A stretch of DNA of 63,849 nt, the filler included, from Aduncisulcus paluster (lineage: Eukaryota), in assembly GCA_024181965.1 (NCBI GenBank). It is 8 parts of 8 records of this genome, joined end to end, with 100 filler letters (N's around TTAATTAATTAA, not from the genome) between each part and the next. Parts side by side here need not be neighbours in the genome. Positions count along the whole stretch, not along the records: positions 1 to 9,993 come from BQXS01011124.1; 7 more parts are not named here. One strand, written 5' to 3'. The stretch's first letter is position 1, and every line of letters begins with the position of its first letter. This document shows positions 1 to 47,600 of this stretch, in pieces. A program made the translations under genes and the position numbers. Below the pieces are notes generated by a model. It had not been told where the DNA came from. It searched no databases and worked only from the letters and a program-made list of their open reading frames with translations.

Positions 1-2
1 CG

Positions 3-1112
3 AAGAAGTCGAAGAAATCTAAAAAATCGAAGAAAGGTGGGCTTGGTTCTGCTCTCGAAGTCCATTCCATTGATATCGCTCTCGATGAGATGACTGTTGC
101 TGGAAAAGATCGCAAACCCTCCTCTTCCTCTTCTTCCTCCTCTTCCTCCTCTTCCTCTTCCTCCAAACGAAAAGTTCAGAAATCGATTGAATATTTCATT
201 GATGACGATGCCCCCGATGACCATGCTTCCCCTCTTGGGCCTGGGACGGACAATCCAAGGTGTTCAGTGTTGTTGCCCACCAAGAAGTCTTCAAAGGGCT
301 GTATTGTGGCGACAGTTAAGTCTGGTTATATTGTTGGTGTGTCTGGGTGCAGCTTTGAGGTATATTTGGATGATCATGGAGAATCTGGATATGTTCCTCA
401 TACATGTGTTCTATTAATGGATACTGAGAAAGATACTGATGATTTTGGAATTGATGACGATGACCCCGATGACCATGCTTCCCCTCTTGGGCCTGGGACG
501 GACAATCCAAGGTGTTCAGTGTTGTTGCCCACCAAGAAGTCTTCAAAGGGCTGTATTGTGGCGACAGTTAAGTCTGGTTATATTGTTGGTGTGTCTGGGT
601 GCAGCTTTGAGGTATATTTGGATGATCATGGAGAATCTGGATATGTTCCTCATACATGTGTTCTATTAATGGATACTGAGAAAGATACTGATGATTTTGG
701 AATTGATGACGATGATTTATCCGTTGAAATCGAACTTCCCAAGATCGGTCGAATTGAACCGGCCGCTTATCCTGACTTGCCTGGGCCCTTGATTGGCTCT
801 GACCTTCCTATCACATCTCCCATGGCTCCTGACCTTGGCGATCTTCCTCCAATTATTCCTCCCCACGATGTCACTGGAGGTGGAGTAGGGGCTATTGTTA
901 GTCCGAGTGCACCTGATTTCGCTGATATTCCTGCCATTGGTGATCCTTCTGGACTTGCCCCTTCTTCGGGTGCCTTTCCAATTGTTGATGGACCGACTTC
1001 AGGAGTATTTGTGGTAGATGAAGGTGTTGACATGTCACTTTTCATGAGAAGTCGTGGATCTGCTGAAACTCCACTTGCTCCGACATTCGATGATCCGACG
1101 ACTCATGAATGA
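3..1112 (+). CDS. 5'-partial protein with two identical SH3-like domains and a Pro-rich C-terminus
   Basis: Frame is open from base 3. The repeated 84-aa unit ends in an SH3-like GESGYVPHTCV motif. The C-terminus has PMAP, PSAP and PLAP motifs. Confidence 0.65.
   Translation, partial: KKSKKSKKSKKGGLGSALEVHSIDIALDEMTVAGKDRKPSSSSSSSSSSSSSSSKRKVQKSIEYFIDDDAPDDHASPLGPGTDNPRCSVLLPTKKSSKGCIVATVKSGYIVGVSGCSFEVYLDDHGESGYVPHTCVLLMDTEKDTDDFGIDDDDPDDHASPLGPGTDNPRCSVLLPTKKSSKGCIVATVKSGYIVGVSGCSFEVYLDDHGESGYVPHTCVLLMDTEKDTDDFGIDDDDLSVEIELPKIGRIEPAAYPDLPGPLIGSDLPITSPMAPDLGDLPPIIPPHDVTGGGVGAIVSPSAPDFADIPAIGDPSGLAPSSGAFPIVDGPTSGVFVVDEGVDMSLFMRSRGSAETPLAPTFDDPTTHE
198..714 (+). repeat. 252-bp near-exact tandem duplication
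   Basis: Unit starts ATTGATGACGATG at 198 and 450, with a partial third start at 702. One substitution seen between copies. Confidence 0.95.
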
Positions 1113-1329
1113 TCTGTATGAGCTTATATATATTGTTTATTCATACCAATCCACACAAAGATAAAATATATCATAATATATTGGCGAGATATTGTTAAAT
1201 TATATATGATTTCTTATATGGCTAACTCTATCGAATAACAACTATTTTTTCCAAGAAATATAATTATAAGTTGAGAAATCTTTTGGTTTATATAGATATA
1301 CAGTATGTGCTTATATGGATGGTTGTTAT

Positions 1330-2030
1330 CATTTTGTTCAAATAAATCAAAATGGTAATTCTCTTCGAGTTCAGCTTCAATATTCTAAGGTTTCAAAGCA
1401 TCACCTCCGACCTGTGACCAATGTGCAATCATGTTGCTTTTGTATGAATTCATTCAAAAAGCAGTTCATCAGAAGTCATAGTATTTCAAAAATGTCGATG
1501 CTCTTGTGATCAATTTCCAGTAGTAAACTTTCTCTCGAGTCTGTCTTGGTATTCATCCTTCTTTTGATATTTTTCTGATATCTGAGATAGAAAGAGAGAG
1601 CTAGTTTGGTTTAGTGCTTCATTGTATAGAATGTATCATAGAGTATTGTGATGTTATGTATGTATGTAGGGTGGGTGGGTGGGCAAGACATACATTCTTA
1701 AAAATCTAACTCAATCGTTGATCCATTCAATTTCTACGACTTTTCGTTCATGTTTATCAACCAAGAAACCTCTGGATCATGCCAGTTCTAGTTTCATATA
1801 CTTCGTAGTGTTCTTTTTCTTTCGAGTCCATTCATTTCCTCCGTGTGCATCTGAATCTTCTCGACTTCACTTATACTTGAAATGAGAACAATCAATTCAC
1901 TCACACAATTTGACCTTGCTAGCTCTTCTTGACAACGGTGGGAGTGGCTCTCAATCGATTCTTTCAATCTCTGAAACCGAGTGGAAAGTCTTGAAATAGA
2001 AATGTATGGCAAAAAAAGATCTGTTTCGCA
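1330..2030 (-). pseudogene. Decayed coiled-coil-like gene with a candidate 112-nt spliceosomal intron (1693-1582)
   Basis: Minus strand reads GTATGT...CTCTCTCTTTCTATCTCAG. Flanks are coding-like (ORF 1794-2012) but have stops in all frames. Boundaries approximate. Confidence 0.45.
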
Positions 2031-2050
2031 TTAAAAATGAAAGAAAATCA

Positions 2051-2992
2051 TTATAGAATTCCAGTTGCCATACTAATACTGGGATTAGATTCTCTCGTAG
2101 TAATAGTACTTTGTACCGTTGAGGCCTTCGAGAAACAATACTGATCGTGCTTACTCTTCACAATATCATCAATGGATTCACTGAGTTTTGGACTGAGGTG
2201 TGGGGTTAGCCCCGATCTCCCGAAATCGGGGTCTTCCTGTGTAATATTGTGGACGCAGCCCAACTCAACCGTGTCACGAAATACTAAACCATCTTGTAGC
2301 AGAATCTCGTCCACCAAACTCAAATCCTCTTTAAGGGCCAGACCAGTTGGCCAGAGTTCCCTTGACGCTTCTTTGTGGCGAGTCACCTACAAGGTTGTAG
2401 ATGGCTCCCAGGATGACGTAGTTGTCAGATATCCATCAAAGAAGCGGGCCTCTTTCTCCAGAATCATGGCAGCAGTACCATCTTTGTCCTTAACACGAGT
2501 CTCGTCTATCATAGCAATTTCGAAAATGCTGCTATCTCTTCTTCTTGCGGATTCGGGCCAGTTGGCCAGAGTACCCTTTATGCAGAGATGTCGCACTCGA
2601 CCACTCACGGAAACGCCATCAACAAAAACAGAAAGTGGGCACCATAACCATGATTTTTCCCAGAGAGCCTCGTCCCAAACCGTCAAAGTCTTTTTGGGTG
2701 AATCCAAAATGGCATTATTTCCACTAATAATCGTCGAGTGGCAGTCCCGCACAAAGTCATCACCTTGAATCAGTCGACTTACTAGAAACAAGCATCGAGA
2801 TGCAGAATCGAATTCACCTATTGTAATCAAACCTTTCAGAAGCGAGATCATAACCGCAGAAATCAAGGAGCGCTGTATCTCTTTTCCTCTCTTCCCCGGT
2901 GTGGTTGGGTTCTTGAAGAGAGGTTGGAGCTTTTCGGCTGGGAGTTGCATCTTCTGGATTCTTCTCGATATCGGATATGATACAACCTCCAC
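2051..2992 (-). pseudogene. Unknown protein interrupted by one in-frame TAG
   Basis: ORFs 2387-2992 and 2051-2386 abut in the same frame, separated only by the TAG at 2389-2387. Confidence 0.6.
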
Positions 2993-3261
2993 AATCGTGC
3001 TTTCTCTCTCAATCGCCTTTTCTCTTCTTCTCTCAATCTCCTTCTGCTTCCTATCAATTTCTCTGATCCTCTAAAAATTTTCTTTGTTAGTGGAAATACA
3101 CGAATATCGTACTCTTCTACGGTTCTTCTCTCAGTTCAGATACATCGGGGGCGCGTGGGACTGTACCTTCTTTTCCCACGAAGACAAAGGTGAAGGCCAA
3201 AGCCTGACGCTTCACACATAGAACAAGGAGTATGCCCGTCTTCCTTCTCTTCGTTCTATCA

Positions 3262-4205
3262 TCATCTCTGTCTCTCATCATCACTCTCAAGGTCATCTTC
3301 AACTTCTTCACCACTTTTTTCATCCAGCCCCGATTCCCAGGAGTTCCATATGCAAGAGGTCTGGAACCTGGTTTGTGGTGGGACTAAACCACAGAGCACT
3401 GTCGTGGAGCGGAGTAGAGGGTAACTCGTGAGGCTCCCAAAAGGTATCTTCACTCCCAAAGAGAAGATCTCGTCCTTCGCCCCGACAAACTGAACATGGG
3501 GTGAGCCCGCCCGATTTTGACCCGGAGTTTTTTCATTGCGGGCTATCGGTAACCATGGAGTTGAGATACACAATGACAATGACCCCATCCACCTCAAGCC
3601 AAGGTATATGATGTCCTTCTTGAGTTCGGTAAAGACATTCATCGTCTCGTCTCTCGCTCTACGCCATTCGTCCATACGGTGGTCTTCTTGTATGGAATGA
3701 TGAGTTTCGTTTTCCAATAGTGGGCTTTGATTGTTAATGAAGAAGATCTGAGGATTAGATCTGGCTCCATATTGTGAAGCAGACTATCTAACACTGCTTG
3801 GAGTGATATGAGGGCTCCAACCTCCACTCCACCAGAATATACACTTGTGTCACTGGTTGTCACCTCTCGGAGGCTTGATAATAGGCTTCGAGTCAAGCCG
3901 ATAATAAGACCGAACACTCCCCAAGGATTTAATCCCCGTGAAATGTTTCAATATCAAACTCAATTGAATTTTTGTGCGACGGTAGCCAATGAAAAGATTT
4001 TATGTTCCAAGCTTACTGTGTTTGTATGGAATCGAAGGTCTTCTCCTGAAGAATGGATGTCTTTTGGTATTTTTACCATCGGCCAGCCACATTTTAAAAG
4101 ATTTAAATCGTTGTATGACTCCAATTCAACCCCATTAAGTGTTAAATTGCCATCTTCTTCAAAGGAAAGTATTCTTTGTGAGGATTGAACATCTGTGTGT
4201 TTCAA
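3262..4205 (-). pseudogene. Fragments of an unknown gene
   Basis: Three successive coding-like minus ORFs without ATG starts (3960-4205, 3639-3917, 3262-3717), broken by a stop and a frameshift, ending in an acidic tail. Confidence 0.45.
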
Positions 4206-4636
4206 TTTTCTTTCTTTTTCTTTGCCAATACTGTCAAAAGAACCAATTGTGAACAGCTCTTCGTTTCAATTCTCTCAATTTAATTTCCTCTAAAATTACA
4301 ATTATTATCGTCGATATAGGATGTCCATTCCAAGTAGTAGAGCAGCTCTCAGTCCTTCTTTCCTCTCCCCTCTCGAATTGCACACGATAAATTCAATAAG
4401 GAGATTGGTCCCAGTCGGCGCTACACTAGTAATTGGGTACAGGATTTGACCACTCCTGATAGTGGAGTATGTTCCTTCAATCAATACGACCAGGAGCAGA
4501 TCGTCATCCAGCATCCACTCAAACTCTACGCTTATGCATTTCATATACCTTGCCTCATTGAAGAGGATCAGGGAGTCAAATTTTCCTTTGCATCCTTGAT
4601 AATAGCTAATTCTCATCTTAATATTAAGCTGTTCTC

Positions 4637-5899
4637 TCAAGTATTTGGCGAAATCTTTCCGATTTGACTCAGTATGGCCTCGAATATCCTTTCTAACATT
4701 TCTTGGATGGGACCAAAGTGCGCGACCATGTCCGACATGAAATTGAGAAGGCCTTTGATCCATTTTCCCAGGAGCTTGAATTTTGCCAAATAGCCAATAT
4801 TAATAGCTGCTGAAATATCTCTGTGGGTCACAGACAGGCACCTTCTCTGGCGCTTTAATTTTGTATTTCCTTTGCGAACCACCGGGTCGTGTTCTGCCCA
4901 GCAACAGAATGATAACGGAAACCCACAGTGTCTCTTCCCGCTGGCCGGGAATTTCCCATCCCCTACACACAGCATTGGGGTACTGCCGGTCATTTTAGAA
5001 AATTTGGCGATTTTCTTCTCGAGTTTTTGTGCTACCTTAAGTTTTTTCGCGTGATTGCCATAAAACTTGATTTTTGAACGTGTACAGTACAGTGACTCCT
5101 TACGGCGTCAACGTTTGGTTGGACTGTATCTTCGTTTGACAGCTCATCGAACTGATCCCTTATGTCGATCACATGGCATATATACACTGGTTCCAATCGA
5201 ATCTCTCGTGTAGTGGTTCTTGCATTTATGCACGGCGTAAGCATCAAACATCACTAAGTCTTTGGGGAGGCACAGTGTCCTCCATCTCTCCCAGTATTTG
5301 CCTATGCATCCTGGACTCCAAGGGGTGAGATGTGGGCTCAGTCTCGCACTCCCGAAAGGAGTCGGGGTCTTCAAGTGTTACTGACTGAGGCGTTTCTCTC
5401 TCCTCGCAAACTGTACCCAAATACTTCTTACCTCCTGAATCTCTTGTAGATTGCTTCCTTGGCAACATTCCCCCCACGAGAGGGGGCTTTCTGCTTCTGG
5501 AGATCAGCAATGAGAGCAGCAAAGGCTATCCTCAGATTCCAATTCTTCAAGCTCTTTGTCAACGACATCCTCTTCTTCTCCATCATCATCTTCTTTCGGA
5601 TTCGTAATCCTACTGTGTCTCTTCGTGAGTTCCGTTGCTTCAACCATATCAGCATTTTCTTGGAGTCTCTTTAAGCATTTGTGGCGCATTTGACTTTCCT
5701 TTTGGGATCCGGTTGGTGAGTATCCCTTTTCAATGTGTCTCAACAGAACATTTCCAGCAATGAGATCAGTGAAGATCTCGGGCAGGTGCAACAGAAAGGC
5801 ATTAATATCACTGGCACTCGGTGAAACTGCAAAGGGAGACTGTATCTTTTTCTCGCCGCAGCGTTCTTCTATCGTTGAGAGCACTTCAAGGTGCATCAT
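4637..5899 (-). pseudogene. Fanzor (eukaryotic TnpB-like RuvC nuclease) pseudogene
   Basis: Motifs in the expected order across frames: DSGGKKYLGTVC (RuvC-I DPG-like, ~5441-5406), basic helix RSKIKFYGNHAKKLKVAQKLEKKI, PMLCVGDGKFP (~4978-4946), Cys remnants, HRDISAAINI (RuvC-III, 4825-4796), then DQRPSQF after a 1-nt shift. In-frame TGAs at 5146-5144 and 5110-5108. The RuvC-II Glu segment is missing. Confidence 0.75.
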
Positions 5900-7400
5900 A
5901 TCATGGGGAAGGTGATATTGGGGGAAGAAATAGAGGGAAAGAGATGAAAGGATCCAATAAATACTTCAGTAATTGAGTCTATTTCGTATACTATTGATAC
6001 CATCGGCAAAACACAAAACATGTCAACTGGTTCTATGTATGAAACTATTGGTTCGGTTTTAGTCGTTTGCATTTCTCCCCCCCTTAACGCACACAATGCA
6101 TCCCTTTCATGTGACGAGAGAGCTGTCAGATCAGTAATAATAAAGGATTTTCCAAGGTAGATGGTGTTGGATTTGGCCTTGTCGAAGGTAAAAATAGATA
6201 AACTGGAATTCTCAGAATTTAAAAATTTTGTTGACAAAACGTCATTGATCAAAAAAAAATCTTCAGGAATCCCATCTTCATTGGTTATTTGGGTCCTTAT
6301 CTATATATTGCCATCCGGCAAGATCTGCCCGTTCTACAACTTCTTTTACCTTCTTAACCAGAGAGGAGGTAATGAATTTCGTTCCTGAGTGATTGAGAAT
6401 ATCACCTAACTGTTGTATGACTATAAGACCTCCCAATAGTGATCTTCTTTGTGATATAAAAACGAGATAGCTGCATGGGTTATTGCTATAAGAGCATGTG
6501 TTTTCGTCTCATGGAAGCGATAAGATGAGGTTTCTGGGGGCGTAAAGAGATTTTCGAGCTCAGAGATGTAATGTGCTTCGTTCCTGAATGATCAAGTATT
6601 TCATTCAACTTCTTAAGGATGGATAACGCATTCCAATGCTGATCTCCCTTTATATAGGTATGATATTGCAGCATGGGTTACTGCTTGGAGAGGGTGTGTC
6701 TTCGTAGGATGAGGTCTCTGGCGGTGCAAATAGATTTTCAAGTTCATCAGTACCTATTCTTTTTCCATGAATGGCCTTGGTAGGGGGGTAATATTGGCAT
6801 TCCCCGTCGGAATGTTGCTCAAGTAACTCTTTTAACTTTTTTGTGGCTCTTTTCAATCATCTCTCTCTCTTCGTAAACTCTTGTCGAGTATACATCTTTC
6901 ATCAAGGGAAGCGATTTCAGTTATTGATTTGACCGATTTTCGGAAACTGAGGGGATAGTTCGCAAACGTAGTTTTTATCGCAAGGGTTTTCACCTTTCCG
7001 TGTATACTATTGACACCATCGGCAAAACACAAAACAAAACAAATCTTGGCGTTCTTTTTAAACAAACCGGCATCGACCCAGTCTGAAGGAGGACCATCCA
7101 CAGCTTCGCATCTCTCGCCTACTTTGATAATTTCAGTTCTTATTTTTCGTAAGTAAGCTGGGGTGATCGAATCGAACAAGTTCGTTCTTAATTTCGACAT
7201 TATATCCACCAGCATAGTTTGCAGTGCTTCTGAATCCCCCCTCCCAAATCCCTCTCTCAACTGCTACATTTTTAGTCCTTATCATAAATTCCAATATCGT
7301 CCTTATTCTTAATTTCACGCATCTACAGCCTTCCATAATCTCATTGGCGTCCTCTCCTCTTCTAAACAAATCAAACTCCTCCTCCTTCCCAACCCCTTTT
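5896..7400 (-). pseudogene. Degenerate ORF fragments including two paralogous segments
   Basis: Minus ORFs 7133-7369, 6853-7260, 6650-6856, 6486-6674 and 5896-6252 in shifting frames, with a shared 35-bp block. Confidence 0.45.
5986..7036. repeat. 35-bp dispersed direct repeat (5986-6020 and 7002-7036)
   Basis: GTATACTATTGAYACCATCGGCAAAACACAAAACA, 34/35 identical. Confidence 0.9.
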
Positions 7401-7811
7401 TCTTGAATAGTACAGTATACAACTTCGATTTGAAAAGATATTGAAGGACATCTTTTAGCTCATTGATAGCCTTTCCCTCTCAATCTCTTTGACAACTTCT
7501 TTTAAATTGTTATTGTGGTTTCTTGCAGCATCATCTATAATAGTGGTTGGTGTGTTTCCACAACACCGTTTGATAGGAGAAGCTTCACTCAATAAAGAGA
7601 GAGGAAGGGGGTGCGGGTCCGGGGTTTCAATAGTAATTACCTCCTCATCCTTTAATAATGTAGTATCGCATACATGTTACGATATTTAGGATAATATTAT
7701 GTCAGAGATTCACTAAAACGAAACAATCACCACACCGTCCACATGTGTGAAGCGGGGTCAATACATGTAGAGAGATCAATATCTCGCACAATTTGCATGA
7801 CTAGATCACTG

Positions 7812-8096
7812 TCATCTGATGTTGGCATCCCGAGGCAGGGATGTTTCTTCTTCATCGTCCTCTTCAAGCAATGCATCAGATAGGTCATCATTCTGACTTC
7901 TCCACTCTCCTGTTGAATCTTCAGATCTCAATTGTGAAGAACTTGTTGAAGATTCATCCTTTTGATTGATTGCATAGTCATCTTCTTCGTCAAAAAGTGG
8001 GTCATCCCCAAACTTGGCGTCTCCATAAGAATCTAATGGGGGGTTGAAAAAGATGGATACTATCCAATCTTTCCTGGTTTGCCTCGGATCTTTCAA
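7812..8096 (-). pseudogene. Acidic ORF remnant
   Basis: 94-aa D/E/S-rich ORF without an ATG start, co-oriented with the island. Confidence 0.35.
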
Positions 8097-8313
8097 TCAT
8101 TTGTCTATCTTCTTGCGTAATATCAAGGTATGAACTGTACCTTCTTCGATTAGTCACCATTTGACACCAAAATACAATTTCAATTTGGAAATGCGCAATT
8201 AATGCATGAAATACTAATATAAGAGGTTAATAAACATTTCAGGTAAAATATTCGATTTCATGCATTAAAATATCATTTTACTTGGGAGTTTCTTCAAAAC
8301 ATATGGAGAAACA

Positions 8314-8412
8314 CCGTCAATCATCACCAACTTGGTGATTGCAAAACCACCTCTCCACAGGTACAGAGTTCCACAATACCTGTGGGAGAGGTTCTCGTCA
8401 AAAATGACGGAA
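8314..8412. other. Multi-hairpin element (possible structured RNA or DNA cruciform)
   Basis: ATCACCAA-C-TTGGTGAT palindrome, CCTCTCCACAGGTA/TACCTGTGGGAGAGG stem, and CCGTCA(8314)/TGACGG(8405) or CGTCA-AAAA-TGACG closing stems. Confidence 0.5.
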
Positions 8413-9005
8413 TTTTATACTTGACCATTCTCGAAAAGGGATCTGTTGCTGCGTGTTATACTTCTTGACCGAATTGGTTGAGGATAGCTGTCATTAATAC
8501 AACATGACAGTAGCAGATAGTGAATGGAATGGTAAATCATCGGAATATTATCCGTTTCGGGATGTAATACTAGGCCAGAGGTTTCTGTTCTTGTGATTGA
8601 TTCGAGCAATTTAATTTAGAGAGGACTTGCCAAGTGTGGCCGGAGTAAATTGTGTCCAGTTTCAAGACACCAAGGACACGGATAATATCCCGAATCTATA
8701 CATCTAAAAATATGTGTTTAACGGTCAATCGACACAATATGTGACATTTATGTCCCTTTTTAACATCCTCCGTTACATTTTGTATATCCTTATATTGATC
8801 ACGGGATCTAAATGAATTCTTTTCATGGTGTCAGCAAATATTCTTCGTAGATGCGATTCGCCTCGGATTTTCTCCGAGCAATGTTTCTCTTTTAAGTTCC
8901 ACTCTCGATACTATATCAATTTCAGGAACAAAATCTTTTACACAATCTTGGATAAAATTCTTTTCAGCACTACTAAGTGACTGATCTTGTAATAGAGCTC
9001 TGGCT

Positions 9006-9452
9006 CTAGTAAATATTACGTGTAGTAGATGGCATCATAATATATCTTTGAGATACCATGGATAATAAAATAACACTTATGGATGGATAACTTGTTCTTA
9101 TTGAAACAAGATCTCCCTGCCTGTGTTTCCCACAGGATAAGGAACTTACTCCACTTGACTCCTGTTGAGCCAAGAAGTCTGCAACAGCCTCTTCAGTTCC
9201 AATATATCCTCTGCATAGAGAAGAACCACAATGACACTCTTGCAGATGTATCTCGTCGATAACACTGTAGTTTGTAGTGATCTTATCCCCTGCATCAATT
9301 ACCTCATCCGCAACAATGTAAACGATAACCTTTGGATTCTCATAACAGATAACAGTCTCCAGATAGCTGCAATTAGGCTCACAACTATGATTGGCAAAGG
9401 CTGCGACACATGCTGATCTGCATGGAGGGATCACGCCGGGGGGGACAACCAA
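9006..9452 (-). pseudogene. SET-domain C-terminal half plus post-SET (lysine methyltransferase fragment)
   Basis: AAFANHSCEPNC, IDAGDKITTNY and CHCGSSLCRGYIG motifs. N-terminal SET half and ATG absent. Candidate intron 9495-9418 (GTAAGT...TGCAG). Confidence 0.8.
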
Positions 9453-9993
9453 GGGGCCAAAAACGGAACATGAACAAATAAATCATAAGACTTACGCTCC
9501 CCCGGGTTGATCAGACCCAGGGGAACTGCTTTTATAATATATTATGTGCCCAAAACCAAAGCCCGCAATCGTGAGATTCACACCGAAAGGTTAATGTGGG
9601 AAATATTAGAATGTAAATTAAGATTAAAGGTATAATAAATAGTTAATAATTTATTTTTGTGCATGAGTTATTGATAATATGCTCATGTTAAGAGATCAGA
9701 AATAAGATCTGGAATGAAGAAGTCAGACGGATATTATAAAACATATTATTAATAAATATTTCTAATATACTTAAATTTATTATTTATTCTTCTTCTGCTA
9801 ATCCTTTTCCCTGACATTGGTGAAATTTGAAAAAGACTGATTTCTCCTTGGTTGTTATAATTAAATTTTTTATTATAGCGTTTTTATTATTTATATTGGA
9901 TTTTATAAAGGTTTTTATTGTTGTTTTTTTAATAAATGCATTTTAATATCTGACCTTGATGACATTTGAAAAATTCTTATATATCGGGTAAAA

Positions 9994-10093
9994 NNNNNNN
10001 NNNNNNNNNNNNNNNNNNNNNNNNNNNNNNNNNNNNNTTAATTAATTAANNNNNNNNNNNNNNNNNNNNNNNNNNNNNNNNNNNNNNNNNNNN
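9994..10093. other. Artificial contig linker (same linker cores at 18029, 27632, 32976, 41879, 49671, 59985)
   Basis: N-run + TTAATTAATTAA (multi-frame stop spacer) + N-run, seen seven times. Confidence 0.98.
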
Positions 10094-12776
10094 TTTGCTT
10101 CCTCTCTTCTTCTTCTCTCTTCTTTCTTTCTTCTTCAAGACGTCTCCGTTCGATGGCTAGTTGTTTCTTACGCTCTTCTTCTTGTCTTCGAAGCTCTTCT
10201 TCTCTTTTCTTCCTCTCCTCTTCTTCTTTCCTTCTTTGCTCCTCTTCTCTCTTCTTCTCTTCTTCTCTACGTTTTCTATCGGCGATTTCCTGGAGTCGTC
10301 TTTCTTCCTCTTTCCTCTTCCTTTCTTCCTCAAGGCGTTTCTTCCTCTCTTCCTCTTCTTTTTCTCGACGGATACGATCTTCTTCTTCTTTCCGCTTCCT
10401 CTCTTCCTCTTGCTTTTTCAGTTCCTCTTGTCGCTGTCTCTCTTCTTCTTCCTTCTTCAGACGTTCTTCCTCTTTTCTCTTTCTCTCGGCTTCGATCCGT
10501 TTTCTAATGGCTTCAAGTTCCCTTTGTTTCTTTTCTTCTTCCCTTTGTCGCCTCTCCTCTTCCTCTTTCCTGTGTTTGGCAACAGCAATACGACGCTCCT
10601 CTTCTAATCTTTCTTGCAACGCCATGGCTTCCTTTCTTTTCCTTTCTTCCTCATCGGCCAAACGTTTGATCTCGGCTTCTTTTCGCTTTCTCTCCTCTTC
10701 TTCTTTTCGCTTCTTCTCCTCTTCTTCTTTTCTCTTCCTTTCCTCTTCCTCCTTTTTCAAACGCGCCTCTTCCTCTTCTTTTCTCTTCCTTTCCTCTTCT
10801 TCTTTTTTCAAACGTTCTTCTTCCTCTTCTTTTCTCTTCCTTTCCTCTTCTTCTTTTTTCAAACGTTCTTCTTCTTCTTCTTTCTTTCTTCTCTCTTCTT
10901 CTTCTTCTTCTTTCTTTCTTCTCTCTTCCTCCTCTTCTTTTCTCTTTCTCTCCTCCTCTTCCTCCTCTTCTTTTCTCTTCCTTTCCGAGTCACTCTTTTC
11001 TTCGCTCTCACTATTTCCGCTATTCTTTTTAAGTAATATAAAAGGAAGGCGAAACAACCTTCGAAGTTGAGCACATTTGGCATATCTCTCTACGGGGTTC
11101 TCAGACACCAGAAGGGATAATTGCTTCTTCAGATACGATGACCAATTTGAAGAGAATAATTGGAAGGTGGAATAATCCTTCGGAGCTTTGACAACCATCG
11201 AGGTCTTGCTCCTCTGCAACTCTGGTACATCTTTCTCAATCTTACCTTCGGCGGAGTTACGGACATGATATTTTCCATCCAACATTTCAAGAACATGGCC
11301 TTCTTCCACCAAACTAAGAATAATGTACACACAACAACAAGCAACAATATCGTCAGTGTAGGATGTCGCACGAAGTTTCTCAGAGGAGGGTATCTGAGCA
11401 AGAGTAAGCGTACGAGACTTTGTAAGCTTTAAAAAACGGCCTAATAACTGGACAAATACACTTCCAAACTTCTCGGAAAGGAGGGATTTCCTGAATTTCC
11501 AAGCAAGCTTGTAACGATCAGCGTTTGGAGGGGGTTGGGTTCGAGAAAAATGAACGTAACTTCCCAAACCAGCACCGACATGAGTGTTTACCAGTGCGGC
11601 ACTGATTTTTGCTGCAAGACGAGCTATATTTAGACTTGCATCGTCAGATCCAGAAAGAGTCTTCACAAGAATAGTCAACATTAGGGATTGTATTCCAAGT
11701 CTTTCCATTTCCTTCAGACAAGTGAGGTCGTTGACGAGGATCATGAGCACTCCAAGAGCATAACGAGCCACTTCTCGGGAGCACTCAGGGTCGTCCAATA
11801 GGGGTTTAATACGGACAATGACACCCTGTTTGGTGGCTTCTTGCGTGACTTTCTTGAAGAAACAGAGGTGAATGAGGACAGATAGAGCATATGAGGTGAA
11901 AATGTCATCAAAATCACCCAAACGGGAAGAAATGATATCTAATCCTTTCAAATCGAGAGATACGAACTCGGCTACTTGTTGGTCATCACTAAATTTATAT
12001 AAAACACGCACAGCAACCATCACAACACGCTGGTCCTCGTGGGATTTTACGAGATTGAGGCATTCCTTCCAGATAGATTCCCTCGCCATCTCTTTCTTAT
12101 GCTGGTCATGGTCAGCGAGGAGAAGAATGCAACTGAGAGCCAAAGTTAGGGTGGCAGGATCTGTGGTCTGTCTAATTCCAAGAGTTAACTTCTTGACAAG
12201 ACGAAGGGATACAGCATACTCTGCGTTGGCTGGAACAGCAAGCATAGAGTGAAGGCCTTTCATACTATCACGAACAGACTTGCCTTCAAAGTTTTTGCTT
12301 GAAATAACATCAGAAAACACATCCATTCCTCCGCTTTCCCGAAGAAGAGATAAGAAACATTTAGATCGAGTAAGATGTGATAATAAGGATATTGAAGAAA
12401 AAAATAAATGTTTCTTCTTTGTTTCTTTCGCTGCTTTCATCAGAGCTTTGAATGATTTGGCTTTTTCTTCAGATGGTTTGGATCTCTTGATATTTTCAAA
12501 AATAAGAGGAAATATTTTTTCTCTCATATCATACACCTCCTCAACGCATGCTTGACTTGAAAGAAGTAACTGAACAAATCTCATATTCAGCGCAGCATAA
12601 GTCACATTATCAGAACTAAAATTATCAACTAATTTGTTAACAAATCCATACTTTACCGCCTCATCGCGGTATTCTTGTGATTCTTTGGCTATTGAAAAAT
12701 GTCTTTGTAAAATTGGAGAGGCTTCATCAGGTGGGCTTAACAAAGCTGCTTTTAATTCTGCAATATCTTCAATCAT
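10094..12776 (-). CDS. Armadillo/HEAT-repeat protein with long E/K/R single-alpha-helix tail (3'-partial)
   Basis: ATG at 12776. Helical ARM-like repeats in the N-terminal ~450 aa, ~300 aa of EEEERKRK-type repeats, then the gap. Confidence 0.75.
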
Positions 12777-36522: not shown

Positions 36523-39500
36523 ATGGTTAAATTGAACCATAAAGCATTTTCATTCGCCTCATTTGAGAGAATTGCAAAACAACTCGCACTTCTGAAAAAT
36601 AGCTTAACTATCCTTAATAATGAAGAATCATCAAAGGATATAATACATTTCCAAAAATATATGGATCTTTTTTATGCAAATGCTGGACTATTTGATATAG
36701 AAATGGGAGATTTTTATTGTAATAATGCTGAGTCTGCTAGAGACTTTTCTCGATCAATTTGGCATTTTTTTAACGCCAAATTATACAAACAAATTGGGTT
36801 AGAAGTTTTTGGAAGTCCTCTTCAACCGAGAAATGGGAATATTCTCGTCCTATTAAAAGANNNNNNNNNNNNNNNNNNNNTTTCCAAAAATATATGGATC
36901 TTTTTTATGCAAATGCTGGACTATTTGATATAGAAATGGGAGATTTTTATTGTAATAATGCTGAGTCTGCTAGAGACTTTTCTCGATCAATTTGGCATTT
37001 TTTTAACGCCAAATTATACAAACAAATTGGGTTAGAAGTTTTTGGAAGTCCTCTTCAACCGAGAAATGGGAATATTCTCGTCCTATTAAAAGATGTTATT
37101 GAAGCCCATCGAGAGAATCCCCAAGTGACAAGACCCGGAATCCGTGCTGTTTTAGAGTTATCAAAACAACCTTGCGCCCGTGGAAAACTTGTATCGTTGG
37201 GATTATGCAAATTAATCTTTAGTTTGTTTGATGACGATTCTTCTCAGAAATGGATTTTATTATGCCTCTCCACTCTCTCAAATCTATCATTTTCCGTCTC
37301 TCTTCTCTCTCATTCCAACCTTTTCCACCGACTCATGTGTAAATTCATGCGGAATACTTCCATTGTTTGTTGTATTATCACCATTTTGAAGAATTCAGTG
37401 ATTCTTCCGCTTGTTTATTCGCATTCACACATGCAGATAGCTATTCAAAGTGTTGTTCAAGCCCTTCTGACCCATCATCAAGATCGGATTGTATCTTGGT
37501 TATGCCTTTCTTTTATAACACATACTGTCCGAGATCTCCAACTCCAAAAAATCCAACATCGGAGAGGATCCCATCTCGGCAGAAAGATCGATGGTGTTGG
37601 TGGAGCAATATCTGATGAAGAGAGACATTCCCCTGGCTCTGGCTCTTCATCCACCACCGATTGTCCCTCCACTTCCTCATGCTCGATCTCTTTCTCATCC
37701 TTATCCTCATCATCAAAGACCCCCAGTGCATTTATTCCCTCCCCACACCTGAAAACTCTCATCCCTTTGCTTCTCACACAAGGGTTTGGCCTGCCTATAA
37801 AAAAGAATCGGCCTCGTTCCATTGTATCCCGTAAGTCTTTCTATTCACAACATATCCCGCCAAACTTCGTAGCCCGTGAACCAGGCATGATCCAGTCTGT
37901 CATGACCTTGAGCAACATCTGGAGTATCTTCCCCGAAGATATCATCAGAGATAACATCCCCTTGTGGTGCATTGCTCTAGTGTCCACCATGATTGGTGCT
38001 GATGACACTGACCTCTCGAGCGCAGGAATATTCTCCCTATTCCCGAGTCCTCCGCTAGGGTCAGTCGGAGTAACCACATCAAGTGACATTCCCGCAGGCG
38101 CCTCCATAACAGACATTACTGGCATGTCCTCATTCTCTTCCTCATCGGGAACAGGCAAAGGAACGATGCCTTCCTCATCCATAGCTGTAGATCTGTGCCA
38201 TGTTTCCTCCTCTCCCTCTCTTCTTCCTTTCTTCCATTATTTACTGTCGCTTCCAGTCATTCCAGGTTCATTGTTGCCACCCATCGTAGAGTGTGTTGGG
38301 AGAATGTTCAACTGTGCACACATGTCCGTGACAGACTCTGATGTTTTATTGTCTAACGGGAAAAAACTCTCTTCAGTGTCAGGGCAGAGAAGATACTCGG
38401 AATCAGCATCGATGGAGTCAACCACACCATTCACAGTGTCTTCAATGTCGTTATCTGGATATCCATCTGGTTCTAATGGTTCTCATGGTACCTCTAATTT
38501 ATCATGTGATGTTCCCACAGGTATTCTTCTGTCTCCCCTTGAGATACTTGCTTACCTCTCCTTATTAAGAAGATGCATTTGCGTGTCCGAAGTGGAATCC
38601 TTGATCCCTCTGGGCTCTCTATCTCGTTGTCTTCGTGTGATGTGGCATTTACTTAAAGGTAATTCGCTTCTCAGTGTGGGTTCCATCGAGGCTGTTGAGA
38701 TCGTTGTTGATATTTTGCTTCGNNNNNNNNNNNNNNNNNNNNCTCTTCAGTGTCAGGGCAGAGAAGATACTCGGAATCAGCATCGATGGAGTCAACCACA
38801 CCATTCACAGTGTCTTCAATGTCGTTATCTGGATATCCATCTGGTTCTAATGGTTCTCATGGTACCTCTAATTTATCATGTGATGTTCCCACAGGTATTC
38901 TTCTGTCTCCCCTTGAGATACTTGCTTACCTCTCCTTATTAAGAAGATGCATTTGCGTGTCCGAAGTGGAATCCTTGATCCCTCTGGGCTCTCTATCTCG
39001 TTGTCTTCGTGTGATGTGGCATTTACTTAAAGGTAATTCGCTTCTCAGTGTGGGTTCCATCGAGGCTGTTGAGATCGTTGTTGATATTTTGCTTCGAACT
39101 GTTGAAGTTCTGCGACAAGGCGTGATCATCCCTCTGCTTCCTATCATTGTCCGAAATGAGATGGCCGAGATTATGTCAGCCATCAAACCTTTTGTTCCAA
39201 TGGTCATCGAGGAAGTCGGAATTAGTAATATCAGTCACTCATCCTCAAAGTACCCGTCTGATGATTCAAAGTTACATTGTTCAGATGATCGTGGGGACTC
39301 AGGTCAACCCTCTAGGCCTCGTTCTGTATCCTCATCTGCCGTTGAACGGAGCTCAGTATCATCATGGATAAAGCCAGAGAAGAAATGTGTTAAATATATT
39401 GATCTCCTCAACCTTTTCCTGCACCCATCCACATCCCCTTCTGCATTATCTCCCCTCTTCTCCTTAACACTTCCCATTTGTCTCTCTCTCCATCATGGCA

Positions 39501-41834
39501 TAGCCCAATGCAACTGTATATCCTGTGTTAGGTGCCTTATAAAGGTTATGATGGAGTGGCATCAACAAGAGGTTGTTGCGCACGAACAAGGAGAGGAACA
39601 GATCATCCCTGATATAGCTTCTGTAGACACCCACCCTTCACCCTCCCACCCTCATTCTCCTCCCACTCTCATCCCCATTCTTTCTGCCTTACTCTGTTCA
39701 CTGACAGAACCTTCAATCTCTATGTTCCTCCATCCATCTCTCTTTCCCTTGAGAAAGTCCTTCGTTGACTGCATATGCATGTGTGACCACGAAGGAATGG
39801 AGATGGCATGTGAAATAATATCCAAAATTGTTAGATATTTGCTTCAAGTAGAACGTAATATGCTTGTGCAATATGAGAGAGAGAAAATGATTCGTAAACA
39901 ACATGAAGATGAGAGAAAAGAAGCCATGGTTGCCCTCGCTTCAATGAATCTCTCTTCAACAGTCCAATCCACTCTTCTCGGTGCTTATTCAGACACTGTT
40001 TCCATCGAAACTAATGAAGATCCTGAGAAAGCACTGCCAACTGATAATGACATTCATGTTCATGTTCAAAAACATCATGAAAGATCTTCCGCGGAACAAT
40101 CCGACACTCTATCAGATTCCCTCTCTTCCATACGCTCCACTCTCCATCCGTTTTTGTTTGGAGATGAATGTGGCATTGTGTCTTGGCTATGTGGATTCAT
40201 CGAGAGTGGATACCTATGTGGCAGAGCTGTGGAACTATTGTGTACATTCATGGATGCCGAGTCTTCTGTATGTGACATTGTTGTGACTCGCGAAACTCCT
40301 TATGTTCTCGCCAAATATCTGGCCAAATATTCCACTTACCAGAGCTCTTGCATAACAACAAAACCACACAAAGAAGGCGGAGAAGGCGAGGAAGAAGGTA
40401 TTCCGCAAGAGGAAGAGGAACCCTCTATTCCTGTGTATAGAAGTGATCCTCAAAATGGAGCTTTCTTCTCTTCAGAGGCCGAGATGGTTGTAAAATTCTT
40501 CTTGACCCTGGCTCAGACAGAACGAGGCTGTGTGTGTGTATGAATGCGTTGGTGATTTATTATCAAGCGTATGCAGTGCCAGTGTAAGTGATGAGGTTGC
40601 CGTAAGAGTCTGTGAGATATATACACGTATTTTGAGCCTTGCTCCATCCTTGGCCATGACAAGTTCATTGCACCCTTTTCAAATTGGGTTGATGGAATCC
40701 AAGCTTTCTTCCCCTCCCCATCCTTCATCTGGAACTCCCCATTCCACTGGTGGTGTCAATCCTATGGAATCAACTCCCTCTGTCGACTCTAGATCTCATC
40801 ATCATTCCCATCATCACACAACACAACCCTCAATATCCTCTGGTGTATGTGAGAATGTTTTGGGTCACATTGGTACTTCTCTGGGCTGTGTTTGGGCAAG
40901 GAGAAGAGAAAGAGAACGGAAGAACAAAATGGCAAGACAATCGAGTGGGCTTGGTCGACGTCAGAATAGCAATATATTGAGAGTATCCAGACTTCAATCC
41001 ATTTCCATCCAGTCCACCCAGTCCCTCCCTTCTCTCCACCTTCAACCCTCAGCATCCATCAACAATTCTTCGGATCCTTTCTCCTACACTTCTTCTTCCT
41101 CCTCTTCTTCATCCGCTCTTTCCTCTTCTCGAGGTAGCTATCATTGTTCGCTGTATGATGTTAGAGTGAATGATGTGTATGTTAATGTGATGAAAGTTGT
41201 GTGCGACTGTTGTCTAATATTCAGCCATGTTCCCTCAGTGATCGTTCGTGCTCTGAACATATTCTCCAGTCTTCCACTCGATATATTCTCCTCGATACTA
41301 TTATGTTATCCGGCCCTTTTCTCGCTTTTCATGGCCGTGTGTTCAGCTATAACCAAGAGAAACCTCAAAGATAAACGTCCCAAGTTGCTCATGTGTGAAT
41401 TACTGCTCTCTCTGCCGAAATGTGTGCTTGCTGTGCTGATTGCTGATGATACCACACGTATCACTGCAGAAAAAGAGATAGGTTTGACGAGAGTTATTGA
41501 TTCAACTTCCATTCCTTCCTCTTCCTCATCATCATTGCCTTCAAAGGTGACTTTCTCAACCTCTCAGAATGCCGGAAAAGGAGATACCCAGCCGAGCGAG
41601 ATGAGTGTAAAAAAAGGAAAAGACAAAGCCATGTCTCTCAGAGACATTGACGGCATGCATCACTCAGTGGATCATGAAGCAACTCACAAGGGTAAGGAAG
41701 ATGAACTGAAACTCTCAGATATTAAAACATTAAAGAAGTCAGATCAACCAACAACTATCAAAGGCAAAGATGAGAAAAAAATTACTAGACCTCTCACAAG
41801 ACAACAGAAGAAAGAACTCAAAAAAGAACTCAAA
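36523..41834 (+). CDS. Very large hypothetical helical/Ser-rich protein (3'-partial), split by two gap duplications and one frame change at ~40530
   Basis: ORFs 36523, 36894 and 38750 overlap through duplicated flanks of the 20-N gaps. ORF 40530-41834 continues after a (TG)5 run. Confidence 0.7.
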
Positions 41835-42101
41835 NNNNNNNNNNNNNNNNNNNNNNNNNNNNNNNNNNNNNNNNNNNNTTAATTAATTAANNNNNNNNNN
41901 NNNNNNNNNNNNNNNNNNNNNNNNNNNNNNNNNNCCCTTAAATTGGAGGTTTTTATTCTATCTTAAAGATAGAACTTTTCCTCCTTCCATTGGTAGTTAA
42001 CAGGTAGGCTTTTTTTGGGGCAACTGACATGCCATGTCTACTATGATAGTATGATCTAAGGTAATTGGCTTTTTTTTTTAATTTATTATTACTTGGGGCG
42101 A

Positions 42102-44653: not shown

Positions 44654-47600
44654 ATGAAAGTTTGTCTCGTCATTGCAGAAAAACCCAGTATAGCAAATAC
44701 TTTTGCTAAATTCATTGCTGATGGTGATATATCCACAAAAACAGGTGGAGGTACTCCTGTCCACATGTTCACCTCTAAAATAACTGGTCAAGCGTGGCAA
44801 TACAAAGTTACTAGTGTTGCAGGTCACTTATTTGATGCCAATTTTACATCAGGTTATGAAAACTGGCAAGATGATCCAGCTCGTCTTTTCGATGCTGGAA
44901 TTAAGAAACAATCTTGTAGTGGACGTATTATTCATCATCTAGAACGTGAATCTAAAGGATGTGATGCCATTATCCTAGCTTTAGACAATGATAGAGAGGG
45001 TGAGAATATCGGTCTTGAAGTACTTAGTCTTGTTGGCAAAAACTTTAACAAATTCCACGAATGGGATAATATTAAAGATATTGTTAAAAATGGTGGCTCT
45101 TCAGGTGCCAAACCTCATCATAAATCTCACGGCAAAGGTTCTTCCAAACATCCATCTTCCTCCTCTTCCTCGACTCTAAACTCTGAAAAACAACAAATAT
45201 ACAGAATCATCTTTTCATCTCTTACTCGTGTCGATATCAGGAAAGCCATGCACAGTTTAACAAATCTCAATATTAATGCGGCACTTGCTGTTGAAGCCAG
45301 ACAAGAACTTGATCTCAAAGTCGGTGCAGCCTTCACTCGGTCACTTACTGTTCGTTTGAGAGGAAGATATGAAGGATTTGAAGAAGGAGTTGTGTCATAC
45401 GGTCCCTGCCAAACCCCTACCCTTAATTTTGTTGTAAAGAGGGATGATTTGCGTAAAGCATTCGTTCCAAAAGAATATTGGACGGTAGCTGTTAGTGTTT
45501 CGAGCATNNNNNNNNNNNNNNNNNNNNCATCTTTTCATCTCTTACTCGTGTCGATATCAGGAAAGCCATGCACAGTTTAACAAATCTCAATATTAATGCG
45601 GCACTTGCTGTTGAAGCCAGACAAGAACTTGATCTCAAAGTCGGTGCAGCCTTCACTCGGTCACTTACTGTTCGTTTGAGAGGAAGATATGAAGGATTTG
45701 AAGAAGGAGTTGTGTCATACGGTCCCTGCCAAACCCCTACCCTTAATTTTGTTGTAAAGAGGGATGATTTGCGTAAAGCATTCGTTCCAAAAGAATATTG
45801 GACGGTAGCTGTTAGTGTTTCGAGCATCGGAAAGGATTCAGGAACGATGGTAGATTCGTTAGCCTCTAATATTACAATGAAAAGTTGTGGAGGGCGTTTA
45901 TTTGATCGCAACGAGGCTCAAAAAGTATGTAAAGAGATTTCTCGATGCGGTTCCTTGATAGTACAGGCCGTGACAAACTCCTGTTCAAAGAGATCTCCCC
46001 CGCTTCCTTTGAACACTATTAATATGCTTGAATTGGCCTCTATCGAACTCTCCATGGCTCCCAAACACACAATGCACGTCGCTGAGTCGCTATATCTGGC
46101 CGGATATATTACTTATCCACGGACAGAAACCACAAGTTACTCGAAGAATGTCAATTGGAAGTCAATCATTTCCAAATTTGTAGAAAAGAATGTTTACAAC
46201 TCAAGTTCTATTTTGGGAGATGCTCCCTCCCTCTCAAGAGCTATAATTAGAACCCATACCGGTGTCGATGCAGGTGACCACCCTCCCATCACCCCGACCG
46301 GTGTGGCTATAAATATCTCTGAAGTTTCTCACCTTGGAAGTGATGCCTGTGAATTATTTGATCTTATATGTCGTCATTTCCTCGCCACCATGGCCCCTGT
46401 TTGTATTTGTGAGACCAAAAGTGTTGTTTTCCAGGTCGAAGGCAAAGAAAAGGAAATATCTGCTTTAGCAATGCGAACTTCCAAGGAAAAAAAGAGAGGA
46501 AGAAAGGAACAACCCGAAGGAAAAAAAATGAAGAAAGAAGCGGATGAAAGTCAACTTGAGGAATATATTGATGAGAAAACTCTAAATGAACAGGAGGAAA
46601 TGTTCGGGGAGCAAAGAAAACGTCACGATGCTTCATTTTATAAGTTTAAAACTTCATCTCTCTCAATAATTTCTCCTGGATTCACTGAGTTCGCATACTG
46701 GAAAAAACCTATTGCGTCCTCCTCCTCTTCCTCCTCTTCCTCCTCTCCCTCTTCCTCTTCTTACAAAGTAGGAAATAAGTTCAAAGTAATTAGTACAAGC
46801 ACTCCTAATGATTTTACGACCCCTCCTCCCCTTCTTTCCGAAGCAGATCTTATCAAACTTATGGAAAAGAACGGAATTGGAACTGATGCTTCAATAGCCA
46901 CCCACATAAATACTATTCAAACAAGGGAATATGTTACTCTTGTCCATGGAAGGAAATTACAGCCGACTACATTAGGTGTATTATTGTGCCATTCCCTCTG
47001 TGAGGTTGACAAGTGGTTAGTTGAAAGCAAGGCAAGATCGAGGACAGAAAAAGATTTGTTATCTATAGAAAAGGGAAGTAACAACGTTGGAACCGTTGTT
47101 TCCTGTACTTTAGATGCTTACAAATCCATGTTTTCTCGTTTTGTCCAATATTTCTCGAAGATTGAAGCTCTTTTCTGTTCCCATTTCCAACCTACTGAAA
47201 TGTCGCAAGGGAAATTATTATCGAAATGTTCGTGTGGATGTTATCTAAGACACATTACTTTCAGACCACAGCACCTCCACTGCGAAAAATGTCTATTGTC
47301 ATATCCATTGCCTCCTCAATGCTCTTCAGTGAAGTGTTTCAAGGGTGATAAATGCGTCAGATGTGGATTTGAAGTTATCATGGTTGATATTCCAGGTAGA
47401 AGAACTATTTTGCTTTGCCCAAAATGCTACAATGATTCAGAAGTCTCTTGTGGAAGGGAAAAAATGATGATAAATGAAAAGAAAGAAGAAGAGGAGAGAG
47501 AGAGAGAGGAAGAGAAAGAGAAAGAGAAAGAAGCAAAAGGAAGAGGAAGAGGAAGAGGAAGAGGAAGAGGAAGAGGGAGAGGGAGAGGACGGGGAAATTA

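Follow-up and report, generated by a model that had tools for sequence, protein, structure and literature searches.

A likely dead fragment of a Fanzor1 gene beside a probable transposase gene fragment in the genome of Aduncisulcus paluster

We examined a locus on the minus strand of a 63,849-nt stretch of the genome of Aduncisulcus paluster (referred to below as the window), in which an earlier note had read a fossil of a Fanzor/TnpB-like RNA-guided nuclease, stitched together across broken frames between 5899 and 4637. Read from 5' to 3' on that strand, the locus consists of a set of coding-like upstream frames (5110-5965), a relic (4740-5095), and a fragment of a probable OTU-MULE (Mutator-like element) transposase gene (4308-4679). 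The relic is homologous to the C-terminal module of Fanzor1 proteins; its pieces stand in the order of the family, one internal block is missing, a 1-nt frameshift precedes its tail, and the MULE fragment is its neighbour. Very likely, the relic is what remains of a dead Fanzor1 gene. Fanzor1 is the branch of the transposon-borne, RNA-guided RuvC nucleases (TnpB/Cas12) that belongs to eukaryotes and giant viruses. Window positions 1-9993 are a single contig of the draft assembly, and a run of N with the TTAATTAATTAA linker lies at 9991-10096. The GC content of the window is 39.5%, and that of the A. paluster genome is 39.1% (an Illumina/MaSuRCA assembly with an N50 of 4.6 kb, annotated with Braker2 models that comprise 15,316 genes with 11,743 introns; PMC9933649). 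The guess that the host is an anaerobic-type protist was right, as A. paluster is anaerobic or microaerophilic.

The minus-strand frames are named here F2 (in phase with 5965), F1 and F0. All of the peptides quoted in the earlier note occur on the minus strand, each in the frame that had been implied: FAVSP..AFLL, FDAY, RSKIKFY..PMLCVGDGKFPASGKRHCGFP and HRDISAAINI are in F2, while DSGGKKYLGTVC, MEDTVP and RPSQF are in F1, and the serine codon of the DSG motif is TCA, as had been stated. Between 5965 and 4640, frame F2 is interrupted by only four stops over 442 codons (5506 TGA, 5380 TAA, 5146 TGA and 5110 TGA); the remaining two minus frames have 27 and 35 stops per 667 codons. When codon usage is scored as log-odds, with 9595 codons from ten long open reading frames (ORFs) of the window as the training set, the best frame is F2 at 5950-5470, F1 at 5500-5250, F0 at 5230-5050, F2 again at 5110-4900, and F1 at 4780-4310. 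Since the best frame switches along 5950-4310 in this way, the frame changes that had been stitched are real. No paralogue of any ORF of the locus is found within the window.

The relic extends from LYCTRSKIKFY to RPSQF, is non-functional, and is delimited by the profile comparisons and shuffles described below, in which it is represented by the minus-strand ORF 4640-5107 (156 codons, F2). Its first part (4913-5071, PMLCVGDGKFPASGKRHCGFP) is a helix followed by the beta strand equivalent to RuvC-II, with residues 13-65 of the ORF aligned to positions 31-81 of our Fanzor1 hidden Markov model (HMM). The strand, PMLCVGDGKF (VGDGKF at 4949-4966), has the Gly feature of a Fanzor RuvC-II, that is, a Gly where canonical TnpB has its catalytic Glu. 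According to passages of Jiang 2023 (PMC10530073), Fanzors have Gly or Pro in place of the canonical Glu of RuvC-II and use an alternative Glu ~45 residues away, which explains the GxGxF strand. Next comes a short linker (4844-4912, LSFCCWAEHDPVVRKGNTKLKRQ), which replaces the block with the alternative Glu, [TS][TS]xxC and first CxxC and is ~39 residues too short: HMM positions 82-143 (62 states) are unaligned, with just 23 residues (66-88) opposite them. The alternative Glu and the [TS][TS]xxC block are absent, and the vestige LSFCC alone remains. The C4 zinc finger is absent as well, as the cysteines between GDG and RD are at ORF residues 61, 68, 69 and 90 and form no CxxC pair. We infer that the gap between the strand and RuvC-III is a deletion. 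The following part (4772-4843) holds a remnant of the second zinc-finger half (RRC) and RuvC-III (HRDISAAINI, 4796-4825), with residues 89-112 aligned to HMM positions 144-167. An intact ORF of about 400-1000 residues is not present at the locus, with its four F2 stops, its frame switches and only ~120 recognisable codons. The proposal of a dead copy that lacks the catalytic Glu block is borne out.

To compare this ORF with Fanzor1 proteins, we assembled a reference set. A degenerate DNA pattern for HRD.NAA.NI yielded at least 110 stretches in IMG/VR, mostly canonical TnpBs. A second pattern, in which RD.NAA.N[IM] is followed by 12 codons and RP, yielded 48 stretches in IMG/VR, many of them on contigs of giant-virus metagenome-assembled genomes, and at least 120 in metagenome contigs. 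From 168 ORFs with the RP pattern we kept 27 diverse Fanzor1-type C-terminal modules of giant-virus and metagenome origin, leaving out near-duplicates, fragments that lack the GxG strand, and canonical TnpBs whose RuvC-II reads E-x-L. Many of the reference ORFs share an architecture in which a hydrophobic strand ending in [GA]-x-G-x-x-F is followed by K-G..P.P, then by l-V-d-E-x-x-T-S-x-x-C-x-x-C, a second C..C, W-x-RD.NAA.NI and RPxx[FL]. The set is genuinely Fanzor1, because a profile of 10 ORFs from the IMG/VR RP scan (A1) matches the solved Fanzor1 structures in the PDB (PpFz1 of Parasitella parasitica, 9cf0, E 5.3e-20; SpuFz1 of Spizellomyces punctatus, 8gkh, 1.5e-14; GtFz1 of Guillardia theta, 9cer, 2.8e-7), and matches Fanzor2, Cas12f and TnpB more weakly. 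In the A1 alignments, the tails of the solved PpFz1 and SpuFz1 are RPPLFSR and RPEVFSR, and RuvC-III of solved Fanzor1s reads RDQAAVLNF and RDMLSTCNM; since the solved proteins show both, an RPxxF tail and a residue other than Asn at the 'N' position are normal for Fanzor1. The view that GxGxF and RPxxF are Fanzor1 signatures is confirmed in the 27 reference ORFs, and for RPxxF in the PpFz1 and SpuFz1 tails as well. Long Fanzor1 ORFs (671 and 976-986 residues) are found on giant-virus and metagenome contigs (L087/L094/L112/L113 and L116/L121/L124/L175), and the long form has a large insertion of >100 residues within the zinc-finger region.

The HMM of the whole module (Hall, 186 states from the 27 aligned modules) was run with filters off against the 1765 six-frame stop-to-stop ORFs of at least 20 residues in the window. 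ORF 4640-5107 ranks first, with an E value of 2.8e-6 and 24.0 bits; the next-best ORF has an E value of 0.17, and no second Fanzor-like ORF is found among the 1765. Separate blocks of the module were scored as well. With Hup, which covers the helix and the GxGxF strand, ORF 4640-5107 has an E value of 9.6e-4 and 16.1 bits (next ORF, 0.57); with Hdown, from the second zinc-finger half to the RP tail, 0.0016 and 15.0 bits (next, 1.8); and with HnoRD, which covers everything ahead of the RD motif, 0.0037 and 14.1 bits (next, 0.084). With Hmid, the block of the alternative Glu, TS and CxxC, the ORF is not in the best six. Hup and Hdown do not overlap, both rank ORF 4640-5107 at the top and are aligned in the correct order, and the Hup region had no role in choosing the references. 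A preliminary HMM of 13 sequences gave an E value of 0.0043 for this ORF and 0.43 for the next. Shuffled versions of ORF 4640-5107 reached at most 11.2 bits (2864 scored of 3000), compared to the 24.0 bits observed. In hhalign comparisons to the 27-sequence alignment, the ORF is matched with Prob 94.8%, an E value of 4.9e-8 and a score of 48.6 over 73 columns, while the other 143 window ORFs of at least 80 residues score 24.1 at best and ≤21.7 for the rest; against the 10-sequence A1 alignment, the values are Prob 70% and E 4e-5, and the next window ORF scores 22.6. By these sequence comparisons, the above-chance Fanzor1 signal is limited to about 5095-4740.

The tail of the relic is reached through a 1-nt frameshift (4757-4762), at which the frame changes from F2 (..LLGKW) to F1 (DQRPSQF..). 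Reading through the frameshift with an X raises the Hall score from 24.0 to 29.5 bits (+5.5; E 5.8e-8 with Z = 1765) and gives Prob 95.6% in hhalign; RPSQF (4740-4754) is then aligned to HMM positions 171-177 (pRPeyl). This motif is in the +1 frame and 14 residues past the NI of HRDISAAINI, compared to 12 in the reference ORFs and in the solved PpFz1 and SpuFz1. Thus, the 3' part of the locus holds what had been read there: a C-terminal module of Fanzor1 with the GxGxF strand, the RuvC-III motif, and RPxxF reached by a 1-nt shift.

Contigs from two public sequencing runs (X1, a DNA run, and X2, possibly an RNA run), aligned over 3000-8000, indicate that this sequence is not the only version of the relic. 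One X2 contig has an extra base behind 4759, which by reading of its sequence places GKW-DQ.PSQF in one frame, and it differs from the window at 4794 as well. In X1, contigs of similar depth support both bases at position 4794 (1171.7 of 2271.7), and 45 of the 142 contig records aligned to the locus are only 95-99% alike; therefore, at least one other near-identical version exists. Near-identical variant contigs with different flanks are present in the DNA run. The alignment of one X1 contig is split into two pieces at 4916|4917, a point within codon 64 and at most two codons from the site of the missing block; this is a lead only and not proof of a deletion. Summed contig depth varies along the locus and is not to be read as copy number. 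The X2 contigs have no joints over 3000-8000, although contigs cannot show a lack of splicing.

The MULE fragment was identified by tblastn with ADUPG1_010109, a protein of 954 residues from A. paluster with an OTU domain (PF02338, E 8.5e-8) and a weak MULE match (PF10551, E 0.016, 16.1 versus 27.6 bits, residues 557-649). Residues 342-375 of this protein correspond to 4679-4575 (60% identity) and residues 526-616 to 4574-4308 (65%), and the F1 frame of 164 residues at 4799-4308 matches it; the fragment in the window is without ~150 internal codons and both ends of the ADUPG1_010109 gene. A Pfam search with the fragment itself gave no MULE match. The sequence enters the fragment, which is distinct from the Fanzor relic, ~45 nt past RPSQF. 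The fragment directly 3', like the variant contigs with different flanks, places the relic in a transposable-element context, in line with the Fanzor1 assignment. At 4697 and at 4309/4311, the locus parts from contigs that have other flanks, and these positions are therefore repeat boundaries; as the Fanzor tail joins the middle of a transposase gene at the breakpoint at ~4697, the adjacency of Fanzor and MULE sequences may be secondary. The sequence 3' of ~4697, where an omegaRNA would lie, is replaced by the MULE fragment. A search for terminal inverted repeats found no convincing inverted repeats in 3000-8000, and an Rfam search gave no relevant match.

Upstream of the relic, the coding-like frames F2 5965-5507, F1 5525-5247 and F0 5250-5035 had been read as the N-terminus and RuvC-I of the same protein. 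The whole of 5899-4637 would then be one decayed Fanzor gene with its N-terminal two thirds still traceable, in a WED-like FAVSP, a DSG that represents RuvC-I, and a helical FDAY; we consider this doubtful, if well ahead of the other alternatives. The frames are on the same strand as the relic, contiguous with it and coding-like throughout, and the distance of 159 codons between DSG and GDG is within the D-X(125,275) given in a passage of Bao & Jurka (PMC3627910), who place the RuvC-I Asp, in an h-h-D-P-G strand, 125-275 residues ahead of the [TS][TS] motif. Moreover, ORF 5507-5965 has the second-highest hhalign score of the 144 window ORFs against both C-terminal alignments (22.6 with A1 and 24.1 with the 27 sequences), but the matched stretch resembles a zinc finger, which does not fit the order expected of an N-terminus. 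Direct comparisons with Fanzor1 N-termini gave no signal. With an N-terminal HMM built from 16 full-length Fanzor1 ORFs (339 states), every ORF of the locus has an E value of 29 or worse. The DSGGKKYLGTVC frame at 5247-5525, whose DSG had been taken as a RuvC-I one transition away from DPG, ranks 1044 of 1462 with a RuvC-I block HMM (16 Fanzor1 ORFs), 915 of 1454 with a TDGV block HMM and, in the hhalign comparison to the N-terminal alignment, 204 of 227; in this last comparison, ORF 5507-5965 ranks 8 of 227 with Prob 0.7%. By both profile methods, FAVSP..AFLL and MEDTVP..FDAY do not rise above other window ORFs; a full-length HMM of four families has no upstream signal, and Pfam searches with the upstream frames gave only noise. 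Nothing was found in support of 5110-5965 as a Fanzor N-terminus. Passages of Bao & Jurka describe Fanzor N-termini as very variable, so the N-terminal tests have low power and leave room for a decayed N-terminus. Thus, the C-terminal third of the proposed fossil stands, whereas its N-terminal motifs and RuvC-I are not supported. Within this region, breaks or divergence of contigs from both runs, with loose ends to either side, are seen at 5247 and at 5329, which suggests that 5247-5329 is a short repeated segment inside the locus.

The ranking of ORF 5507-5965 could also be explained if the locus held parts of two Fanzor copies, either in tandem or in a rearranged order, one of which keeps in ORF 5965-5507 the Glu/zinc-finger block (..IEKGYS..SQMRHKC...SLCCSHC), along with a decayed RuvC-III, RGGNVAKEAI, in F0. 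Residues 91-153 of this ORF, which include the tail SQMRHKC...SLCCSHC, align to HMM positions 103-143, part of the block that is missing downstream, and by BLASTP within the 168-ORF set the ORF matches the zinc-finger region of L163 (E 0.42), L134 (1.5) and L225 (1.9). None of this is significant: the HMM alignment has 4.0 bits and an E value of 3.8 (rank 7 of 1224), stitching the ORF to the F0 piece gives 6.1 bits and 0.89, Hup and Hmid give nothing for the ORF, and its Prob in hhalign is 16%. We therefore consider two copies improbable. The codon usage of this ORF of 153 codons is strongly host-like, and its product, which has an acidic run and SLCCSHC at the C-terminus, is in the ESM Atlas from residue 23 onwards. 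Its neighbours there are clusters of hAT-transposase type at 0.75-0.78, below the level that a third of shuffled proteins reach, and are a lead only.

We return to the Fanzor1 assignment of 5095-4740 itself, against which several results weigh. First, public profiles do not match the ORF significantly. Pfam PF07282 (Cas12f1-like TNB) gives an E value of 0.12 and 13 bits, compared to a cut-off of 26.3 (residues 85-104 on profile positions 41-60 of 60), and NCBIfam NF040570 (guided_TnpB) gives 0.085 and 12.1 bits, compared to 100 (profile positions 349-386 of 389). The significant match to a Fanzor/TnpB profile by which the earlier note proposed to judge its claim is thus formally lacking with public profiles, and significance is reached only with the purpose-built Fanzor1 profile. 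These two are nevertheless the best or only matches and fall at the right place, though weakly; NF040570 is the sole NCBIfam match of the read-through of the locus, at its residues 354-390. Calibration with known sequences puts such scores in context: on PF07282, the apparently intact reference ORF of 671 residues (L087) has only 22.5 bits and a fragment with a canonical RuvC-III has 11.7, so that 13 bits is what is expected for such a stump. L087 itself has no phmmer match in the PDB, and a pairwise tblastn of L087 against the window gave noise (E 1.2).

Second, sequence searches returned no related protein. A phmmer search of the 156-residue frame against 1.84 billion representatives found one repetitive protein without a Pfam domain, in four stretches, which we judged spurious; against the PDB, the frame has no matches and the read-through has one irrelevant match (E 0.99). 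Word-indexed searches (2772 and 22 candidates) with the read-through, whole and as region 290-400, found only the gene model of the locus itself, ADUPG1_009068, and with the 164-residue frame found the MULE protein ADUPG1_010109. PHROGs gave no match. An IMG/VR search for related loci with the frame of ORF 4640-5107 gave two pattern matches, neither confirmed, and the exact RDISAAINI-type pattern gave one chance match there, on a phage contig with no ORF at that place. A feature search in the ESM Atlas speaks for the assignment, but is borderline. There, 20 of the 30 nearest clusters have PF07282 on 30-50% of their members, mostly Nucleocytoviricota, with a score of 0.94 and proteins of 190-229 residues, but the shared features number 161-166 of 256, under the 170 that nine of ten same-family matches reach. 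An AlphaFold2 model of the frame made without an alignment has only two helices (predicted local distance difference test, pLDDT, 52.5; predicted template modelling score, pTM, 0.27).

Third, the relic lacks most of the motif by which Bao & Jurka define the family, D...[TS][TS]xxC4...RD, and in its RuvC-III a Ser takes the place of the Asn of most TnpBs, although solved Fanzor1s deviate there too. The X2 contig that restores the frame differs at 4753, which by reading of its sequence would turn the Arg of RP to Met, and so is no cleaner copy. Finally, the references were fetched by the RD.NAA.NI-x12-RP pattern and then filtered on family motifs, so that the test of the downstream block is not fully independent of the motif noticed first.

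If the match were due to chance, an unrelated decayed ORF would simply happen to have RD..AA.NI and GDG.F, and the noise-level matches in public libraries would be expected, as would the choice of this region by eye, for these very motifs, from a scan of very many windows. Coincidence would then have to account for the window-wide E value, for two separate blocks in the right order, of which the upstream one was not used in fetching the references, for the distance of the observed score from the shuffles and the high hhalign probability, and for a third signature, RPxxF, at near the family spacing (14 versus 12) and one frameshift off. We consider this very unlikely, and we retain the assignment of the relic to Fanzor1.

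The published gene model of the locus is ADUPG1_009068, a 'hypothetical protein' of 655 residues, which tblastn places at 5468-2054 in eight collinear pieces (63-100%), with a ninth, weaker match (45%) to a related repeat at 7074-6880. It takes the coding-like segments of F2, F1 and F0 as 'exons', joining the three frames of the relic region to unrelated ORFs down to 2054, and neither a Pfam domain nor a homologue other than its own entry was found for it. ADUPG1_009068 is a gene-finder chimera over transposable-element relics. That it is instead a live spliced host gene with the Fanzor-like piece as an exapted exon is the least likely reading of all, for although the Braker2 model includes VAQKLEKK...KRQR of frame 5107-4640, that frame runs 156 codons without a stop, and A. 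paluster has introns, the model hops three frames, skips RuvC-III and the MULE piece, and joins pieces that are relics of transposable elements. A direct repeat of 35 nt at 5986-6020 and 7002-7036 (97%, 1016 nt apart) encodes ..VLCFADG(I/V)NSI.. and belongs to a small family of ORFs on the contig (..FVDGVSVSGRVRHLCIKGTLANWP.. / ..CFADGVNSIHGKVKTLAIKTTFANYP..), with a related protein motif at ~2350-2580 and 6880-7074 on the minus strand; the residues of the model that match 7074-6880 are 473-536. The ORFs of this family could represent a further repeat or a family of host genes.

Other features of the window lie apart from the locus. A perfect tandem duplication of 252 nt at 198-701, within the 5'-open ORF 3-1112, duplicates a segment of 84 residues. 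On the plus strand, adjacent long ORFs in different frames overlap by 13 to about 190 nt, in one set 36894-38942, 38750-40543 and 40530-41882 and in another 44654-45580 and 45568-48636, the last being a topoisomerase III (PF01131, E 3.7e-93); the overlaps at 36894-41882 and 44654-48636 suggest introns or frameshifts.

The ancestor of the relic would have been a working omegaRNA-guided RuvC endonuclease carried on a DNA transposon, a function that we take from homology with the family, as described in passages of Jiang 2023 (PMC10530073) and Saito 2023 (PMC10432273), and not from this DNA. The ~120 codons that survive comprise the helix and the strand with its Fanzor-typical Gly (VGDGKF), the stump of the zinc finger, RuvC-III and the RPSQF tail, and the lost block would have held the relocated catalytic Glu, [TS][TS]xxC and the first Cys pair. 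Because there is no recognisable RuvC-I, the Glu block and zinc finger are lost, the frame is broken and the 3' region is replaced, neither DNA cutting nor guide-RNA binding is possible. The relic is transposon debris in the A. paluster genome.

A dead Fanzor1 stump amid transposase debris is a known kind of object. Like the solved Fanzor1 proteins (9cf0, 8gkh, 9cer), the relic has a strand ending in G-x-G-x-F, then RD..AA.NI, with RPxxF 12-14 residues later; unlike them, it has only ~120 of 600-1000 residues recognisable, without RuvC-I, the alternative Glu, [TS][TS]xxC or the C4 finger, its frame is broken, and neither element ends nor an omegaRNA were found. Prokaryotic TnpB (IS200/IS605, IS607) and the TNB domain of Cas12f share with the relic the RuvC-III end, which falls at the right positions of their profiles, but the relic scores far below their cut-offs (13 versus 26.3 and 12.1 versus 100 bits), and its Gly in place of Glu and its RPxxF tail are both of Fanzor type. 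The nearest parallels are described in passages of Bao & Jurka 2013 (PMC3627910). In the CMe-1A family of Cyanidioschyzon merolae, as here, a decayed Fanzor1 tail is joined to remnants of a transposase gene; the A. paluster relic differs in that its neighbour is a MULE and not Tc1/mariner, its host is a fornicate metamonad, and one copy was read. Similarly, the same source places Fanzor1 sequences inside MuDr-superfamily elements of some fungi, and the relic likewise adjoins Mutator-type transposon sequence. However, those elements have MuDR-like terminal inverted repeats, target-site duplications of 9 bp and no MuDR transposase, whereas the relic has a fragment of transposase beside it and no convincing terminal inverted repeats.

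A. paluster is a free-living fornicate metamonad, and this lineage may be a new host for Fanzor1. Table 1 of Bao & Jurka (PMC3627910) lists seven eukaryotic groups, with no metamonad among them. In the literature searched, we found no paper that links Fanzor with metamonads or Giardia, or TnpB with metamonads, and a search for Fanzor with Trichomonas gave an unrelated review; the 2023 papers in NAR and Science Advances leave metamonads unmentioned in their main text.

Taken alone, the relic matters little, as it is one third of full length, dead, and ordinary transposon debris. It nonetheless provides evidence, from sequence, for the arrival of Fanzor1 elements in a fornicate metamonad. In addition, relics of this kind escape public TnpB profiles, which hardly recognise even intact but divergent Fanzor1s (22.5 bits for 671 residues), so that a family-specific profile is needed. 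More speculatively, and with the odds at present against it, A. paluster may carry, or have recently carried, a live Fanzor1 family, possibly partnered with OTU-MULE transposons. The second version of the locus, with the extra base that restores the frame at 4759/4760, the two pieces that meet at 4916|4917, where the catalytic block is missing in the relic, and the different sequence past 4697, would then be a more complete copy. If this is true, a live family in A. paluster would place omegaRNA-guided nucleases in Metamonada.

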